This document shows, one piece after another, positions 4,159 to 44,790 of a stretch of DNA of 64,000 bases. The notes under the pieces were generated by a model. That model saw nothing but the letters and a program-made list of their open reading frames with translations, did not search any database and was not told the DNA's origin. The stretch comes from a virus. Lineage: Duplodnaviria; Caudoviricetes. Position numbers and translations under genes: made by a program. How positions within the stretch are numbered: the first letter of the stretch is position 1; every line of letters starts with the position of its first letter. Location: IMG/VR virus record IMGVR_UViG_2788500220_000014, positions 1-64,000 of that record; one strand, written 5' to 3'.

Positions 4159-4521
4159 TGGTGGAGACGGCGGGAGTCGAACCCGCGTCCGAAACAAATC
4201 TAATATCAAGTCATTCACAAGTTTAGTTAATTTCTCTAAATCAACAAAGTATCCACAAATTTTCCCACTTCCTATGTAGCCTCGGAAGTCCACCCATTAC
4301 AAATGGGGTATCCATTGTGGTCTTGTTTATTTCGGTGGGACCAACCACTTATCCTAAATTGGTTAGATGGCTTTAGGAAGCCACCCGATTATGCCGCTAG
4401 GGCGTATTCGAAATTATCGTTGTTATTTGCAACTATATTTTGTAACGCTATCAAACCATGTGTTACCGCTGGTTACTTGCACTCTCAACCTTCATTACTC
4501 CGTCGAGACCATTTCGTCCCC
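4159..4521 (-). ncRNA. ssrA: tmRNA (SsrA), 363 nt
   Basis: 5' GGGGACG pairs with 3' CGUCUCC-ACCA, including the G3.U70 alanine identity pair; T-arm GCGGGUUCGACUCCCGC; internal tag ORF preceded by AUAGUU resume context. Confidence 0.97.
4389..4430 (-). other. tmRNA tag reading frame encoding ANNNDNFEYALAA*
   Basis: GCA AAT AAC AAC GAT AAT TTC GAA TAC GCC CTA GCG GCA TAA; the C-terminal YALAA is the canonical SsrA degron ending. Confidence 0.93.
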
Positions 4522-5001: not shown

Positions 5002-5486
5002 TACAATGTCTCTCCTATAAATGTACTATATGAAAACGATTCAATTTTAGCCGTATCGGGCCCCTCTAGAACTAACATTTTTCCATGAATTTCGTCTTCC
5101 ATCTGATCCCGAGTTAATACAATCGATTGTCCCCATTTTTTATTTTCTAGAAAAAATCGTGTATATTCCCACGTCGCTAAATCGACTTTATAGCTCTCTA
5201 AAATATCTCTTATGTCTCGTGGTATAGCAATTTTTATATCATCTACAGTCGTTATCGATCTAAGTTCATCTCTACCAGAAATAATTTCTGATCTACATAT
5301 ATCAATAATCTTGTGTATTACTCCACAATTATTACACTGTGCATATTTTGGTTCTACGGTACCGCTATCATCAATAACTGAGAATACTACGAACTTATGC
5401 CAAGGCCGTTCAGGCTTATTTTTATATTGTGGTAATACACAATGACACTCAACGGTGTGCTTAAGTCCATCCATCTCATAACTCAT
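5001..5486 (-). CDS. Hypothetical protein, putative Zn-binding
   Basis: ECHC and CNNC pairs; ATGA overlap with the upstream gene. Confidence 0.7.
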   Translation of the reverse strand: MSYEMDGLKHTVECHCVLPQYKNKPERPWHKFVVFSVIDDSGTVEPKYAQCNNCGVIHKIIDICRSEIISGRDELRSITTVDDIKIAIPRDIRDILESYKVDLATWEYTRFFLENKKWGQSIVLTRDQMEDEIHGKMLVLEGPDTAKIESFSYSTFIGETL

Positions 5487-5704
5487 TCAGTATTATTTTG
5501 AATTTCATTGGATACACGTGTGTAGGTTCGATCTGCCATGGTAGTTAGGGATCTATTGACAATTTGTGATAACAACTTAAATTGTTCATCGCTTAAAGAA
5601 AGTGCCCCTACTGTTCTTGCCTCAAGTAAATCAGCGGCTACAGAATTTTTAACTAGCTCTACCATGTCATATATGCATCGATTAACATCTGTTTCTAGAC
5701 TCAT
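5483..5704 (-). CDS. Hypothetical protein
   Basis: AGGAG RBS, coupled to the next gene. Confidence 0.7.
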   Translation of the reverse strand: MSLETDVNRCIYDMVELVKNSVAADLLEARTVGALSLSDEQFKLLSQIVNRSLTTMADRTYTRVSNEIQNNTE

Positions 5705-5775
5705 AATTTTCTCCTTTAATGATCATGATCATAACCAACAATATTAGTTATTCATTAAAAAGTAAACTTTTTGAT

Positions 5776-6246
5776 TTATTTTGCATGCTTATCTGCGACA
5801 AAGGCAGCCCAGGAATCAGGCTTAACTATACACTTATACCCCATTGATAAAACAAAGTTCTTTAAAGCCTTAAGGTGCTTCGAACTTTTATGACGGGGAT
5901 CCGGATTAAGATCAGCATGTACTGTAATATCTCTGCTTATAAGATTTGCTTTAAGCATTTCTGCTATTGATATTGACAAATCAGTTTCTCTTTGAAGCCT
6001 ATATCCCAATGCATTATACTTCTTTAAAGATTCCTTGTGCCGACTTACATAATACGTCCCACCATTTCCTGGAACATATAAACATATGACAGTCGCAAAT
6101 ACATACACATCTTTAACTTGTTGAGAATCTGTGCCTACATGAATTTCGAAATCTAAATTACCCAGAATATGTTTAACAATTTCTTTATATTCTACATTGA
6201 TTCCTGATCCGTTAATCCATATATTCTTTTGCCATTCATCAACCAC
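5776..6246 (-). CDS. Ribonuclease H-like YkuK family protein
   Basis: IHVGTDSQ, ETDLS, VHADL, VKPDSWAAFVAD motifs. Confidence 0.85.
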   Translation of the reverse strand: MVDEWQKNIWINGSGINVEYKEIVKHILGNLDFEIHVGTDSQQVKDVYVFATVICLYVPGNGGTYYVSRHKESLKKYNALGYRLQRETDLSISIAEMLKANLISRDITVHADLNPDPRHKSSKHLKALKNFVLSMGYKCIVKPDSWAAFVADKHAK

Positions 6247-12617: not shown

Positions 12618-13082
12618 TTATTTATTTGCCAGTAAGCCTGACCCTATTATTGTATGGGCCCATATCACTCCGGGCACAATAAATTTTTTTGTATTATTGC
12701 AAAGCTCTGTCCACGAAACCCATTTTGCAGAGTCATGTTCTAGAATTCCAGTATGGGGGTTTGGACGTATTATGGGGTCCTGAGTTGTCAGAGCTATAAA
12801 AAATGTCATTTTTTCATTAATATATGAATTTGTACCCCACATAAAATTTAACTCTGTAATTCCGGCTTCTTCTTCTGTTTCTCTTATAGCTGCTTCAAGG
12901 GCTGACTCTTTGTCATCAATACCACCCTTAGGAATATCATATATACCTTTATTTAAAAGTGCTAATACTTTCAATATTCCACCAAAATCTCTAACAACGA
13001 TAATCCCTGCGCCTTCGGGAATGTCATTTGACTCTATCATTTGAGATAAAACCCTCCGTAATAAGTCCAGTTCTATATTCAT
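12618..13082 (-). CDS. NUDIX hydrolase
   Basis: Nudix box PKGGIDDKESALEAAIRETEEEAGI. Confidence 0.92.
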   Translation of the reverse strand: MNIELDLLRRVLSQMIESNDIPEGAGIIVVRDFGGILKVLALLNKGIYDIPKGGIDDKESALEAAIRETEEEAGITELNFMWGTNSYINEKMTFFIALTTQDPIIRPNPHTGILEHDSAKWVSWTELCNNTKKFIVPGVIWAHTIIGSGLLANK

Positions 13083-13660
13083 TAGCTAACTGTTTTAATT
13101 ATATCTTGAAGTTGAGACCAGTGTGCAGGATTAATTTCTGGCGGGATTCCGCTATATTTTAGCTCTAAAGAATTTAATGCTGTTAGATATTTCAAGGCCT
13201 GTTTTTTATGTGGAGAAGATGAGAGGTTATGTAGCATATCGGCTAGCTTTATTTTTAACGCACCCGGATTATCAGATAATGACAAAACATATTTTGAGTA
13301 GTCTGCACCTGGTTCATGTGTTAAAAGATATAAGATCTGTAAAACATGTTTTCCTTCGCTGGGACTAGAATATGACGACGTTATAGCATTGACAAGTTCA
13401 TTTTCATCAACATAGTTCCCATATTTTATAGCATCTTCTAGCGTATCATGTAATAAAGCAGCTGTACATAACAGCTGCTCTCCTGGATAATATTGCTTTA
13501 TAATATTTGCGACTGCTATCGGGTGTTCGATGTATGGTTCGCCGCTGCGCCTCATCTGACCTGAGTGTGCTTTTTCAGCGGTTTGTAGAATATTTGAGGC
13601 ATCTTTACCCCCACAAACTTCTTTTATGTATTCTCTTAAAACTTGAAAATCAGATCTCAC
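13082..13660 (-). CDS. HD-domain RelA/SpoT-type small alarmone hydrolase-like (Mesh1/SAH-like)
   Basis: AHSGQMRRSGEPYIEHPIAVA, AALLHDTLED, IKLADMLHN: the RSH hydrolase motifs, with no synthetase domain. Confidence 0.88.
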   Translation of the reverse strand: MRSDFQVLREYIKEVCGGKDASNILQTAEKAHSGQMRRSGEPYIEHPIAVANIIKQYYPGEQLLCTAALLHDTLEDAIKYGNYVDENELVNAITSSYSSPSEGKHVLQILYLLTHEPGADYSKYVLSLSDNPGALKIKLADMLHNLSSSPHKKQALKYLTALNSLELKYSGIPPEINPAHWSQLQDIIKTVS

Positions 13661-13709
13661 AACTTATTCCCACAAGGCTAAATTATAATTATCTACTTGT
13701 GGTGTGATC

Positions 13710-14300
13710 TTAATCATCTTTGATAACATTTTCATGAATAATTCCACGAATAGTTTTTCTTAACAACATTTCATGTTTAATTTCTATCTTGTTTGCAGAA
13801 ACTTTGACGTCCGGATATTTTGCTTTTAATGCAGAATCGATTGCAGTTATATTATCTATAGAATCCTCATATATGTATACGTCTGTATAACCAGGGGCAG
13901 GAGCTTTGATCATATGACGAAGGACCCTTGTTACTTTTGCTTGGGGATTTGAACTACCCACCCCTATAATATGAATATCATCTGTAATACCGTTATCATT
14001 TAAAAAAGCTTTCATAGGTGCTGCTTTTCCGCGTGCAGATAATACCATTACATTTTGAATACCGTCTTCTTGGATTGCTTTTTTTAATAACTTAAATGTG
14101 TTTGTTATAACTTTTCCATCCGGAGGGTATACATCAAACTCAGAAAAATCAAATCTATCGCCAGGCTGTTCAATATATGTTGCAAATTCATGGCTTTGCA
14201 GCAATTCAATATCCCCACTGGAATGTATTACTTTAACTTTTGCACCTGAAGAAACTAGTGTGTCATCAAAATCAAAAATATGTAGTCGTTTATTCTTCAT
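13710..14300 (-). CDS. HAD-superfamily phosphatase
   Basis: FDFDDTL motif I, LSARG motif II, YEDS motif IV. Confidence 0.85.
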   Translation of the reverse strand: MKNKRLHIFDFDDTLVSSGAKVKVIHSSGDIELLQSHEFATYIEQPGDRFDFSEFDVYPPDGKVITNTFKLLKKAIQEDGIQNVMVLSARGKAAPMKAFLNDNGITDDIHIIGVGSSNPQAKVTRVLRHMIKAPAPGYTDVYIYEDSIDNITAIDSALKAKYPDVKVSANKIEIKHEMLLRKTIRGIIHENVIKDD

Positions 14301-29805: not shown

Positions 29806-30555
29806 TTAGGCTGCGCTAACTCGAGCAACCTCCTTGAATCCGCGATTGTTCAGAGCCAGGAAGAAGGTGTGGCCACAGCCACCGAACCGGTTCTTCGTAG
29901 TCTGGAGGACTCGGCAACCTTCAAGGTCCTTGTCCTTCGTCTCAACGGAAAGGTGCATCATGGCGTCAACCATGTGCTTAAGCTTATTACTTCCGGAAGC
30001 CTGGCCAGACTTGCTGACCTGTCCGATGACAACCGCGTTGCAGTAATGCTCCTTGCAGTAGTCAGTGATCATTGCCAAGGCACGCTCAGCAGACCGGGAG
30101 TTGATGTGACCGTCATTGTACTTACCATCATCCATACACTGGAGGGAGTCGACAATCAGGAAGAAAGGCTTACCAGGATTCTTCTTTCGAAGAGCATCAC
30201 ACTTCTTGAGGAGCGTAGGAACATGAGTTTCCTGACCCACCTTGAACCCGCCCTTGAGGCGAAGACGTTCAACAACCAGCTTGACCTGATAGAGGCTTTC
30301 CTCTGCAGTGTTAAACACCGCGGTAGCACCCTGACGGGTGAGGGCATTAGCCAGGGAGAGCATCATGGTCGTCTTACCTGAACCAGGCTCACCGGTGAAG
30401 AAGGTAACTGCGGACGGGGTAAATCCCTCACCGCCCAGGGCACAATCGACGTAGTCGAGGCCGGACTTTACCTTATTACGTAGCTGCTTCGGGACGTCAA
30501 TGTCCAGAATGTTGGCGCCGAAATCGATGTCGTTTGTAGTAACTTTGAGCTTCAT
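29806..30555 (-). CDS. RadA/Sms-like RecA-fold ATPase (ATPase domain only)
   Basis: GEPGSGKT, AEES, IVDSLQ, HMVDA and the KNRFG RadA motif; no N-terminal Zn finger or Lon-like C-terminal domain. Confidence 0.85.
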   Translation of the reverse strand: MKLKVTTNDIDFGANILDIDVPKQLRNKVKSGLDYVDCALGGEGFTPSAVTFFTGEPGSGKTTMMLSLANALTRQGATAVFNTAEESLYQVKLVVERLRLKGGFKVGQETHVPTLLKKCDALRKKNPGKPFFLIVDSLQCMDDGKYNDGHINSRSAERALAMITDYCKEHYCNAVVIGQVSKSGQASGSNKLKHMVDAMMHLSVETKDKDLEGCRVLQTTKNRFGGCGHTFFLALNNRGFKEVARVSAA

Positions 30556-30614
30556 TTTTTCTTCCTTGGTCAGGTTTAGGAGTTGGGAACCATTCCCCCC
30601 TTCCTTATGTATCC

Positions 30615-30645
30615 ATTATACAATATTGTGGCAGATTTTGCACGA
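30615..30645 (-). promoter_or_regulatory. Early-type promoter
   Basis: GTGCAA aatctgccacaatattg TATAAT. Confidence 0.85.
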
Positions 30646-30671
30646 ACTTGCATGTCGAATAGTCATTTTTT

Positions 30672-30920
30672 TTACTTTTTTTGTGCTTTATTTAGGGCAC
30701 CCATGATGGCCAGGGAGATGTTAGAGGCCTCAGGAGATGCAGTCTTGGGGGTAGGGTTAGCCATAAGCTGTACCGATCCCGTCCCTGGATCCATGTCTAG
30801 ATGACCTGACCAGTACCCCTCGATGACTACCTGGTAGATAAATCCAGGATTATTGGGGTCTAGACCTCGTGTTTTTAGCTCAGCCTGGACCCATTGATTT
30901 GCTTTAGGTGTCAACTTCAT
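30672..30920 (-). CDS. Hypothetical protein
   Basis: ATGA overlap with the vWA gene. Confidence 0.6.
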   Translation of the reverse strand: MKLTPKANQWVQAELKTRGLDPNNPGFIYQVVIEGYWSGHLDMDPGTGSVQLMANPTPKTASPEASNISLAIMGALNKAQKK

Positions 30921-39408: not shown

Positions 39409-40233
39409 TCAATTTTCAATAAACTCTATCAACAAATCAGAAATATCATAGGCAGTCTCAATCAACACTTCAATGCTAGTACGTTCTTCTTCTGTAACAT
39501 CTTCTTTTAAAGTAACCGGGAGGGAATCTAATAGGTCTTTTGCTTCTTTAGGTGATAATCCGGTTATATCCCGCACCAACTTGATCATATCGACTTTCTC
39601 ATTTAGGTCATAGCCATGAAGCCGAACAGTATAGCTAACATCGTCAGCCGGTGGGGTAATAGTTTCTTCATCTTCATGAGAATCCTGCGTCATGAGCTCT
39701 GCTAGACTTACTTTCATATTGTTCAACTCAACAGCAATATCTGCACATAACTTTTCATTTTTAGCAATTTCATTTTTGAGTGCGTCAGTTGTTTGTTGTT
39801 CACGTTTTTCAAGATTGTTCAGCGCGTCGCTGTTGCTCTTGGTCTTACCCCAATGTTTGTCAATAGCAGTACTTAAAGCCTCAATCTCGCCAACAAAATG
39901 TTCACTGATTGCCTTATCACAGCGGTTTGCAATTTCTTCTATTACGTCAATTCGCTTTGAGATCTTATCTAAGTCTAGCTTTGAGTCTAATTTAGACATC
40001 TCGTCTATAACCCTGTGTATGTTATCCCATATCCTTATTTGATCCATTGCCATTGTTGAAATAGATGACATGTATGAGCTCAAGGTTTGTTCAATTTCTT
40101 CATCGCTAGCATCTGAGCTTGCTATTACCTTTAATAGCGCAGATTTTCTTTCTAATTCAATCTCTTTTTTTATCTCTTTTTTAAGATCTTCATTATTTTT
40201 CTCTATTCCAAATAATCTTAATATCCAGCTCAT
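39409..40233 (-). CDS. Coiled-coil protein with C-terminal ribosomal L7/L12 CTD-like domain
   Basis: KVDMIKLVRDITGLSPKEAKDLLDSLPVTLKEDVTEEE aligns by eye to the L7/L12 CTD (KVAVIKAVR..TGLGLKEAKDLVE..P..LKE.VSK); start MSWILRLFG. Confidence 0.8.
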   Translation of the reverse strand: MSWILRLFGIEKNNEDLKKEIKKEIELERKSALLKVIASSDASDEEIEQTLSSYMSSISTMAMDQIRIWDNIHRVIDEMSKLDSKLDLDKISKRIDVIEEIANRCDKAISEHFVGEIEALSTAIDKHWGKTKSNSDALNNLEKREQQTTDALKNEIAKNEKLCADIAVELNNMKVSLAELMTQDSHEDEETITPPADDVSYTVRLHGYDLNEKVDMIKLVRDITGLSPKEAKDLLDSLPVTLKEDVTEEERTSIEVLIETAYDISDLLIEFIEN

Positions 40234-40378
40234 GTGCGTCCGTCCTTTGTGGCAAATATGTCTAAGTATAAATATTTCGAACATGTTCAAGCGCTTCTCA
40301 GAATTTTGAGTTATTTTACTCGAGTCAATGTATCGCTTATAATGTTTATAACGCTTATTCGACAGGAGATTTAAATCA

Positions 40379-43217: not shown

Positions 43218-43445
43218 TTACTTCACTGTTGCATCTGCATCATCAACATTAGTATTCTTGACAGCCGGTGCAATTTCAAACCCTGTAGTTTCTTGAGTCA
43301 CTGCAGGTTTCGAAGGTATGACAGCCGGAGCCTTTGTTGAAGTTACAACATCAGGTTCTGAATTAGATGATTGAAGATAAAACAATCCAACAACTAATCC
43401 TAAAACTGTTACTGCTGCTACAACATATGTAGTATACTTTTTCAT
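43218..43445 (-). CDS. Single-TM secreted/anchored protein (MKKYTTYVVAAV...)
   Basis: AAGGAG RBS before ATG 43445. Confidence 0.7.
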   Translation of the reverse strand: MKKYTTYVVAAVTVLGLVVGLFYLQSSNSEPDVVTSTKAPAVIPSKPAVTQETTGFEIAPAVKNTNVDDADATVK

Positions 43446-43467
43446 GATTAAATCACTCCTTGTTTCG

Positions 43468-43501
43468 AAAAAAAGAGAAGCCCAGCATTCCAAGGCTTCT
43501 C
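43468..43501 (-). terminator. Intrinsic terminator closing the large ncRNA candidate
   Basis: GAGAAGCC...GGCTTCTC followed by T7. Confidence 0.85.
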
Positions 43502-44120
43502 GTTCTCATGACCGTCAAGCCTTTTGAGCCTGTCCCCCTCTTGGGGTTAGACGTGAACACACCGGTAAGTAACACCGTTCACAAGATTTCTCCCTGTTCT
43601 TGGCTCGTAAAAACCACGGAACAGCACGTCCTACTGTCATCAACATTCTGCGCTCAGTTGGGTAAGCTGTACACTTCCCCCCGCATTTGCGCGCCATGCT
43701 TCCAATCCTTGGGAGAATGTCCACATAACCCCTTTCGGGACGATAGGTTCGTTGCCGACTCTACCAGAGAGACTTCTGCCAATGACAGTTAAATTCTAGA
43801 GGTTATTAAGCCTCCTTCCCAAGACTTTTCGACTCCTTTTGGGAGTGTCTTTGGTTTGCCCTTATCCCGTTTCCACGATGAATTTACAAGTCCATGGATA
43901 TTTTCAGCAGTATTTCCCTAGCGGAATAGGGACTCATGCATCCAACTACTAAACGACTTCGGAAGTTCCACCTTCCTTAACTCGTTCCCTCTCTTGGTGG
44001 GGCGGCATGCCGCAAGAACAACACCTTCCCCATTCGAGGTTTTCTCTATCATCTACTTTCGTAATTGCCCAGGAGCCAGTAATTCCACCTGAGTTTTTGG
44101 ACCCGAGAACATGGGTCACA
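43502..44120 (-). ncRNA. Large (~620 nt) structured non-coding RNA candidate, ROOL/GOLLD-class-like
   Basis: No credible CDS. Several GNRA-capped hairpins (UAC-GAAA-GUA, UCG-GCAA-CGA, CCC-GAAA-GGG). 13-bp long-range helix 43777-43789 / 43633-43645 with G-U pairs that favour the minus strand. Flanked by a promoter, a boxA-like element and a terminator. Confidence 0.7.
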
Positions 44121-44124
44121 TAAG

Positions 44125-44136
44125 TTTTCAAAGAAC
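44125..44136 (-). promoter_or_regulatory. boxA-like antitermination element GTTCTTTGAAAA
   Basis: Resembles the rRNA-leader boxA; lies between the promoter and the ncRNA. Confidence 0.55.
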
Positions 44137-44193
44137 CTTCGTTTATTAACGTATGTTAAATATAACGACCCTCTATAGAGTGTATAAAACTAT

Positions 44194-44790
44194 TTAATTT
44201 AATTTTGCACCTACCCATAACCCTAAAGATGCCTGGTAAAGATGCTTCTGGAGCAATTGTTTTGGTATCACCCATTTAAGGGGTAACTCTTCCTTGGGCC
44301 TATCAATTATAGTATTATTTCTATAATCGTGATATGCTGTCATCTGTTGTTGCTTTATCCACCTAATTGTAGATGCATCGCTCCATGACCCACGAGATAT
44401 AACTTGCAACATGTTATTATAAAGTAGCATCTCTATAGTAAACTGATTATCACTTAGGGTAATCGTTGTTTCAAGTAAATAATGACCGTTGTCATACGTA
44501 CATTGCTTAGCATTTAAAGTATAGTCACAGCCCTCCCATATATATGATATTGTATCTCGGTTATAAACGTTAATTGGATTAACACCTTTAGCCAGTCGAC
44601 TGTGCATGCTAGCTAAGCCGAATACTGAATTAACGTCAATATCTACATCAGCATCTTGAGACATGTCAATAACCTTAATAGGTGCTACATAAACTTCTGA
44701 AGAGCGAACATCGCTAACAACAATTGACATATCAACATCTTCTGCATGTGAAGATAATAAAGAGAAAGAGAGAAAGATAAGCGCTTTCAT
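44194..44790 (-). CDS. Secreted hypothetical protein
   Basis: Signal peptide MKALIFLSFSLLSSHA. Confidence 0.7.
   Translation of the reverse strand: MKALIFLSFSLLSSHAEDVDMSIVVSDVRSSEVYVAPIKVIDMSQDADVDIDVNSVFGLASMHSRLAKGVNPINVYNRDTISYIWEGCDYTLNAKQCTYDNGHYLLETTITLSDNQFTIEMLLYNNMLQVISRGSWSDASTIRWIKQQQMTAYHDYRNNTIIDRPKEELPLKWVIPKQLLQKHLYQASLGLWVGAKLN

Follow-up and report, generated by a model that had tools for sequence, protein, structure and literature searches.

A phage RNA gene from the ocean points to a new family of large structured RNAs with a boxA-type leader

What does a phage encode in a stretch of DNA that lies between two genes and holds no credible open reading frame (ORF)? The question is raised by positions 44187-43468, on the minus strand, of a virus of the class Caudoviricetes (positions 1 to 64,000 of IMG/VR record IMGVR_UViG_2788500220_000014; this whole stretch of 64,000 nucleotides (nt) is called the window below). 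The original prediction had placed here a stand-alone noncoding RNA of ~620 nt with a promoter, a boxA-like element and a terminator of its own. All three elements are present on the minus strand, in the order promoter, boxA, folded body and terminator, and homologs and covariation now back the claim. The length was close, the conserved part from boxA to the U-tract being 669 nt and the folded body ~640 nt. We read the locus as a free-standing gene for a stable, untranslated, folded RNA of ~650 nt, which would belong to an uncatalogued family of large uncultured marine phages, be transcribed with Nus factors and boxA in the style of rRNA operons, and act in trans. To this reading as a whole we give a probability of about 0.5. 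The narrower claim, that the homologs form a real and new family of structured RNAs, we regard as nearly certain.

The relatives of the RNA were reached through a spurious protein. A 110-aa ORF on the plus strand (43460-43792) overlaps the RNA, and a search with it in a protein collection returned two 'proteins' that led to relatives at the DNA level. Both (P0001 and P0002, from short ENA contigs) are deposited translations of the strand antisense to the RNA, and such spurious ORFs in protein collections offer a practical handle for locating relatives of unknown RNAs. A 20-mer from the part common to the two 'proteins' retrieved five IMG/VR loci, 68-89% identical across the entire RNA. When these were aligned with the window, conservation started exactly at the boxA-like element and ended at the terminator. 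An invariant 19-mer of the core gave 10 true viral loci and 86 stretches of marine metagenomes (JGI, Tara and other ocean assemblies), and an nhmmer profile search produced 95 matches, 77 of them full length. The full-length members were collapsed at 97% identity into 45 representatives, 66-89% identical to the window, and these were used for alignment and covariation. Three diverse family members had no blastn match among cultured phages (INPHARED). The sole match to the 19-mer among GTDB species genomes, in Acetobacter, was rejected as chance. BLAST within the assembly and the bacterial bin that holds the window's contig found the RNA in single copy. None of 60 genomes akin to the bin holds the RNA, which means little because the contig is viral. 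One 33-kb marine contig (L114) carries two copies on the same strand, at 5394-6117 and 13021-13746, ~7 kb apart and with just 72.5% identity between them. They look like paralogs of long standing, and with two such copies particles might be mixed or roles divided.

Substitutions among the homologs track base-pairing and not codon position. RNAalifold, run on the 45 sequences, proposed 148 pairs, 92 of which show compensatory double changes. Scanning all pairs of alignment columns for covarying stacks, followed by curation, gave a fold in which 166 pairs make up 31 helices, four pseudoknots included. Canonical pairing in this fold reaches 98.0%, against 39-45% when the partners are slid by 1-3 columns and a mean of 86.7% in 500 shuffles. 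A test of covariation among homologs, as the original prediction had asked for, counts 105 pairs changed on both sides, against 24-36 in the slid controls and 73.8 +/- 3 after shuffling, with 0 of 500 shuffles reaching 105; the covariation score is 0.482 observed, 0.09-0.125 slid and 0.249 on average when shuffled. The structure is far beyond chance. The single-sequence fold is also steadier than its shuffled versions (minimum free energy z-score of -2.6), and G+C is 0.47-0.50 across the RNA against ~0.36 in the flanks.

These data bear directly on the idea that the locus encodes one or more small proteins in overlapping short ORFs. The 110-aa plus-strand ORF does exist, and gene callers deposited the two similar 'proteins'; yet their starts and stops differ from those of the window's ORF (at 81-84% identity), and its frame holds at least one stop in 43 of the 45 homologs. 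On the minus strand, the longest ORF in the RNA stretch is at most 69 aa, in line with the absence of a credible ORF noted originally. With substitutions that follow pairing, the small-protein explanation is refuted and keeps practically no weight: the RNA gene is untranslated and not protein-coding.

The signals that delimit the gene are as follows.

44182-44187, minus strand: -35-like hexamer TTATAC (sequence and promoter consensus scan)
44159-44164, minus strand: -10-like hexamer TATATT, with a 17-nt spacer from TTATAC (same scan)
44125-44136, minus strand: boxA-type element GTTCTTTGAAAA, the sole exact copy in the window and the first conserved block of the family
43468-43501, minus strand: P29, terminal hairpin followed by U7, predicted intrinsic terminator (sequence; stem covariation, helix 31)

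The predicted promoter is sigma-70-like, with a start expected near 44152. Its layout is repeated as TTATAC-17 nt-TATACT in the closest relatives (L023, L025 and L119), and the motif has no further copy elsewhere on the window's contig. At the other end of the gene, an 8-bp G+C-rich stem (43501-43494 with 43482-43475) encloses a loop of 11 nt and is followed by U7 at 43474-43468, the make-up expected of an intrinsic terminator. A simple terminator scan overlooked this hairpin, its loop limit being 8 nt against the 11 nt found here. In many relatives the stem has just 5 bp. Because its loop also pairs in the pseudoknot PK4, the terminal hairpin is part of the fold and not merely a terminator.

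The terminator also bears on a second explanation, in which the RNA would be a long cis-acting, riboswitch-like 5' untranslated region. The next gene downstream, a small ORF for a membrane protein with its start at 43444, is indeed on the same strand and begins ~24 nt past the U-tract. However, a strong intrinsic terminator lies in between, and what follows downstream varies among family members (tRNAs, an FKBP isomerase, unrelated ORFs, genes on the opposite strand). This explanation is close to refuted, and we consider it extremely improbable.

The fold between these signals is listed from its 5' end, with helices numbered as in the curated structure.

44100-44117, minus strand: P1, 5' hairpin GACCC/GGGUC with conserved loop GUUCUC; compensatory variants GGCCC/GGGCC and AACCC/GGGUU (helix 1)
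44042-44046, minus strand: PK1, GAGAA pairing with UUCUC of the P1 loop at 44109-44105 (helix 2)
43988-44093, minus strand: P2, GNRA-capped P3 and the P4-P6 arm; compensatory changes in nearly all pairs (helices 3-7)
43900-43987, minus strand: the P7-P8 and P9-P11 arms (helices 8-12)
43857-43898, minus strand: P12 and the most conserved core, with an almost invariant 23-mer (invariant in the first 10 homologs, nearly so in 45)
43886-43880 with 43796-43790, minus strand: PK2, its first strand within the P12 loop (helix 14)
43832-43846, minus strand: optional GNRA-type hairpin ACUCC-CAAAA-GGAGU (alignment columns ~340-360)
43823-43817 with 43714-43708, minus strand: PK3, CUUGGGA pairing with UCCCAAG inside the P18 loop (helices 15-16, together with P13)
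43815-43798, minus strand: P13 hairpin (helices 15-16, together with PK3)
43633-43789, minus strand: domain closed by the long-range helix P14/P15, 43789-43777 with 43645-43633 (helices 17-24)
43594-43624, minus strand: P22-P23 hairpin arm (helix 25)
43504-43586, minus strand: 3' domain closed by P24 (43586-43580 with 43510-43504) and containing P25, P26 and P28 (helices 26, 27, 29 and 30)
43560-43555 with 43490-43485, minus strand: PK4, GUGUUC pairing with GAAUGC of the terminal hairpin loop (helix 28)

The P14/P15 domain holds P16 (GCAA loop), P17 (CCC-GAAA-GGG), P18 and P19-P21, whose loop contains an invariant UGUACA. Each of the four pseudoknots covaries. PK1 has 5 pairs, 3 with double changes (UA to CG in 7 sequences, CG to UA in 3), and is 98.7% paired; the 7 pairs of PK2 include 4 with double changes and are 99.7% paired; PK3, also 99.7% paired, has 2 double changes among its 7 pairs (GC to UA in 9 sequences); in PK4, double changes affect 3 of 6 pairs (CG to UA in 18 sequences, UA to CG in 15), with 98.9% paired. 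A loop-loop contact of 6 bp between P8 and P11 (GUGGAA 43971-43966 with UUCCGC 43926-43921) is additional to the 166-pair fold and covaries as well, in the forms GUGGAA/UUCCGC, GUGGUA/UACCAC and GUGACA/UGUCAC. Between the helices, the alignment shows many invariant single-stranded junctions. With its 31 helices and five tertiary pairings already resolved, the fold is directly usable for cryo-electron microscopy, chemical probing and an Rfam model.

Most of the stems that the original prediction had picked out by eye reappear in this covarying fold, among them the 5' hairpin GACCC/GGGUC, the three GNRA-capped hairpins, the CCCUA/UAGGG stem and the 13-bp long-range helix (P14/P15). Covariation also confirms the CUCC/GGAG hairpin, as an optional insert of part of the family: roughly 20 of the 45 members have it, with changing stems, and it is absent from the others. 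Two proposed pairings had to be given up. The 5' loop was thought to pair with GAGAAC at the 3' end, but that segment is held in P24, which has 4 covarying pairs, and the partner of the loop is GAGAA at 44046-44042 instead. In most relatives the GUGAAC/GUUCAC stem contains an A-C mismatch; it is also in competition with P24 and PK4, and the covarying PK4 replaces it.

Does this fold belong to a catalogued family? At the gathering score, Rfam 15 recognises only a transfer-messenger RNA (tmRNA) in the whole window, at 4159-4521. With permissive filters and E <= 10, the region 43300-44400 has no match to ROOL, GOLLD, OLE, RNase P, intron or ribozyme models; at E <= 0.5, only tRNAs score in 20 diverse relatives; and the HEARO/omega RNA and tmRNA models match neither the RNA stretch nor the 20 relatives. 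The comparison with Rfam suggested originally thus yielded no family, including ROOL, GOLLD, RNase P and the group I/II introns. We rejected membership of ROOL, whose covariance model finds no match in the window, the stretch or the 20 relatives, and the GOLLD model gives the same outcome on the same sequences. The RNA had been called 'ROOL-like or new class': the second half of this proposal holds, and size and setting are shared with ROOL and GOLLD. By these comparisons it is a new RNA class and not a ROOL member. We found no description of it in the literature, and it may overlap an unnamed candidate in a survey of viral RNAs with 10,006 candidates.

The resemblance to these giant phage RNAs is one of size and setting. 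GOLLD, too, is a very large, multi-pseudoknotted, noncoding phage RNA of unsettled function, often found near tRNA islands and rich in covarying long-range loop pairings. It has no sequence or covariance-model similarity to the present RNA, is longer (800 nt or more, against ~650 nt) and is carried by Lactobacillales prophages or found in lake samples, whereas the present RNA sits on marine phage contigs that appear to be of T4 type. The conserved boxA leader is a feature of the present RNA, and cages are known for GOLLD. ROOL shares the size (~600 nt), the several pseudoknots, carriage by phages, a frequent place beside tRNA genes and the lack of a linked protein gene, but its helix plan and conserved sequences are unlike, and the present RNA is marine. 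To our knowledge, only a handful of very large ornate RNAs exist in bacteria and phages (GOLLD, ROOL, OLE, raiA and HEARO), none with a settled function. The family adds to them a well-populated, strongly covarying class of giant ornate RNA from ocean phages.

Which phage carries the RNA? The window's contig encodes PhoH, ThyX, a helicase, an HNH endonuclease and a tmRNA, and 31 of its 109 larger ORFs match the marine viral loci gathered here; the other contigs of the bin have 0 or 1 such matches. A T4 gp23-type capsid gene lies on G000 contig C13 (45823-47427) and a phage-like island of six tRNAs (Arg, Asn, Pro, Gly, Met, Lys) at the end of contig C16 (37693-48727), both similar to the window's contig in G+C. 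Several contigs of the bacterial bin probably hold parts of the phage genome, and the carrier appears to be a large lytic phage of T4 type rather than a prophage, its contig having been binned together with a bacterial genome.

Immediately upstream of the RNA in the window is a 198-aa ORF (44194-44790, minus strand), followed by thyX. The 198-aa protein has no match in Pfam or PHROG families; homologs 33-43% identical to it are encoded on 15 IMG/VR contigs, and the RNA lies beside the homologous gene in 0 of these 15 loci. Across the family, the neighbouring protein genes vary between clades, and no protein gene travels with the RNA. This variable position is what would be expected of a mobile or element-associated RNA, such as an ORF-less intron or the guide or structural RNA of a homing or transposon-like element. 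The RNA sits between differing genes in differing phages and is missing beside the same upstream gene in the 15 related loci, one clade has an endonuclease-like 125-aa gene two genes upstream of it, and L114 carries two diverged copies. Against this stand a promoter, a boxA and a terminator that belong to the gene itself, the lack of any visible flanking repeat or interrupted host gene, and the lack of a match to intron, HEARO or omega-RNA models; and at 72.5% identity the L114 copies are old paralogs and not recent transpositions. We hold a mobile RNA to be very improbable. The data contradict all three of these readings, the cis leader, the coding region and the intron-like element.

If no protein gene accompanies the RNA, tRNA genes often do. 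At least one occurs in 25 of 44 loci, and in 16 of the 44 a same-strand tRNA gene lies within 1 kb of the RNA. Three representatives have a tRNA-Ser that ends ~55 nt before boxA. In L081 (10-846) the RNA stands flush between a tRNA-Met, which ends 6 nt before boxA, and a tRNA-Leu, which starts 3 nt after the RNA; in L081 and L106 (835-1593) alike, a tRNA gene follows 3-4 nt past it. Since the RNA lies flush inside the tRNA operon in these two loci, its ends there would be made by tRNA processing and not by a promoter and terminator of its own. The boxA of L081 is retained although the tRNA gene ends 6 nt upstream, and boxA therefore belongs to the RNA and not to one particular promoter. Phage T4 itself has two stable RNAs of ~140 nt and unsettled function in its tRNA cluster, species 1 and species 2 (rnaC and rnaD). 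They and the present RNA would both be stable RNAs tied to tRNA genes of T4-type phages, with no homology expected, and we know of no report of an ornate fold or a boxA in rnaC or rnaD. The recurrent placement in tRNA islands, as in GOLLD and ROOL, points to a role common to giant phage RNAs in a takeover of translation-related functions.

A place in tRNA operons, at times 3-6 nt from tRNA ends, might also suit a large ribozyme acting, for example, on the adjoining tRNA transcripts, and the densely pseudoknotted core of the RNA, whose junction strands are long and invariant, is compatible with catalysis. But there is no similarity to models of RNase P, group I/II introns or self-cleaving ribozymes, many members, that of the window included, are far from tRNA genes, and the sequence does not point to any candidate active site. 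We judge a ribozyme quite unlikely.

The 5' end of the RNA bears on how it might be made. boxA is unpaired in both the RNAalifold and the curated folds and lies ~15 nt past the predicted start, so that it appears single-stranded and promoter-proximal in a long untranslated transcript, as expected of such an element. Its variants in the 45 members fit G[TAC]TC[TA]TT[GAT]A[AC]A. The consensus GYTCTTTAANA was derived for the boxA elements of gamma-proteobacterial rRNA and suhB (PMC5725501). It is matched exactly in 10 of the 45 members, the rest deviating at positions 2, 8 or 10 of a gamma-proteobacterial consensus that may not be that of the host; no 16S gene was found in the bin or in the genomes of its genus. 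The window's form is, we presume, the one in Bacillus rRNA leaders. In about half of the members, a boxB-like hairpin ends 0-3 nt before boxA (mean z-score of -1.7 against shuffles, with 18 of 41 below -1.5; weak in the window), so that hairpin and boxA follow each other as boxB and boxA do in rRNA leaders. In rRNA operons (boxB-boxA; NusB/NusE/NusA/NusG/SuhB), boxA likewise stands a few nt into an untranslated structured transcript, often after a hairpin. The present transcript differs in being a phage RNA and not an rRNA, and in that no boxC was recognised; the function of its boxA is read from the sequence.

We think it somewhat more likely than not that boxA serves Nus-type antitermination or folding, and we infer binding of NusB/NusE to it. 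In the free-standing RNA gene that we propose, the host RNA polymerase would start at the sigma-70-type promoter, and the nascent boxA would recruit host NusB/NusE and other Nus factors, as on rRNA operons. Their loading would let the long untranslated transcript escape Rho and would chaperone its folding; for the rRNA antitermination complex, the literature describes both protection from Rho and help with RNA folding. The transcript would end at its own terminator or, in relatives within tRNA operons, be cut out by tRNA processing, and during infection the product would act in trans, in the form of a compact RNA particle. Through the conserved boxA leader, a phage RNA is tied in a concrete and testable way to the rRNA transcription machinery of the host, and the leader may explain how long untranslated phage RNAs are made without Rho termination.

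The same boxA, retained at the 5' end of a conserved RNA, would also fit the core of a ribonucleoprotein or a decoy, which would bind and sequester host proteins (for instance Nus factors through boxA, or else ribosomal proteins or translation factors) and so redirect host translation or rRNA synthesis during infection. OLE RNA has been proposed to act likewise with its partners, and the OLE dimer displays protein-binding sites, one of them proposed for RpsU. The many invariant single-stranded junctions would suit such a role, as would the translation-related genes of the phage (the tmRNA, a protein with an L7/L12 C-terminal domain and tRNA islands in the same bin). On the other hand, no protein gene is consistently linked, the neighbours differing between clades, and 31 helices are superfluous for a boxA decoy. 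We consider this explanation unlikely.

Does the RNA that we propose act as a single chain? ROOL and GOLLD form RNA-only nanocages, in which pairings that covariation had first revealed were later seen to link one chain to another. The manA RNA (marine phages, Photobacterium) forms cages held by kissing loops between different loops (preprint 10.64898/2026.07.01.735769). Like the present RNA, manA is a structured RNA of marine phages, and its kissing loops resemble the covarying P8/P11 contact; it differs in being shorter than 200 nt and described as a 5'-untranslated-region element, and its model has no match here. Size, pseudoknots, phage carriage and tRNA neighbourhood match the setting of GOLLD and ROOL, and by analogy PK4 or P8/P11 could be intermolecular. 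Some of the covarying 'tertiary' pairings, such as these two, may join separate copies into a homo-oligomer. An RNA-only multimeric particle is a tentative suggestion that we hold somewhat below even odds. The fuller version, in which marine T4-type phages build an RNA-only multi-subunit cage or shell by means of the Nus complex on boxA, with PK4 and P8/P11 as bridges between subunits, we regard as doubtful. Were it true, RNA nanocages of phages would be general in ocean viruses and tied to the tRNA and translation gene set.

Several observations weigh against the proposed gene and its particle. Multimerisation is not required by the sequence, and a single chain could accommodate all five tertiary pairings. 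Just one palindrome is conserved, UGUACA in the loop of P21; it is invariant, and among so many invariant segments it does not exceed what chance would give. Palindromic loops were accordingly rejected as a sign of a symmetric dimer, this invariant case giving no covariation test. The boxA of the window, GTTCTTTGAAA, agrees with GYTCTTTAANA at 10 of 11 positions, with G for A at position 8, of a consensus that may not be the host's. The window's copy is an exception to the tRNA setting, its 101-kb contig having no tRNA gene. Finally, two related jumbo-phage contigs, of 202 and 273 kb, are without the RNA, which is therefore dispensable for this group of phages.

A few observations concern the surroundings of the RNA. 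In one clade (L033:12687-13214, and also L032 and L034), which has the endonuclease-like gene mentioned above, a gene for an FKBP-type peptidyl-prolyl isomerase comes right after the RNA, and 3-4 large paralogous proteins with peptidoglycan-binding domains are encoded upstream. The tmRNA of the window (4159-4521, minus strand) is complete, scores 117 bits and encodes the tag ANNNDNFEYALAA; it comes directly after an ORF, with no boxA in front. A second tmRNA in the bin (128 bits) lies on G000 contig C24 at ~30303-30740 (L122:404-840), where GTTCTTTGAAAAA, the same boxA form as in the large RNA, stands 5 nt before the tmRNA 5' end. Contig C24 has a G+C content of 0.43 and no genes in common with the phage loci, and it encodes glycosyltransferases, UvdE and a spermidine-synthase-like protein; it may come from a bacterium or from another virus. 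In the window itself, a 293-aa ORF (39409-40290, minus strand) ends in a ribosomal L7/L12 C-terminal domain (Pfam E = 1e-11).

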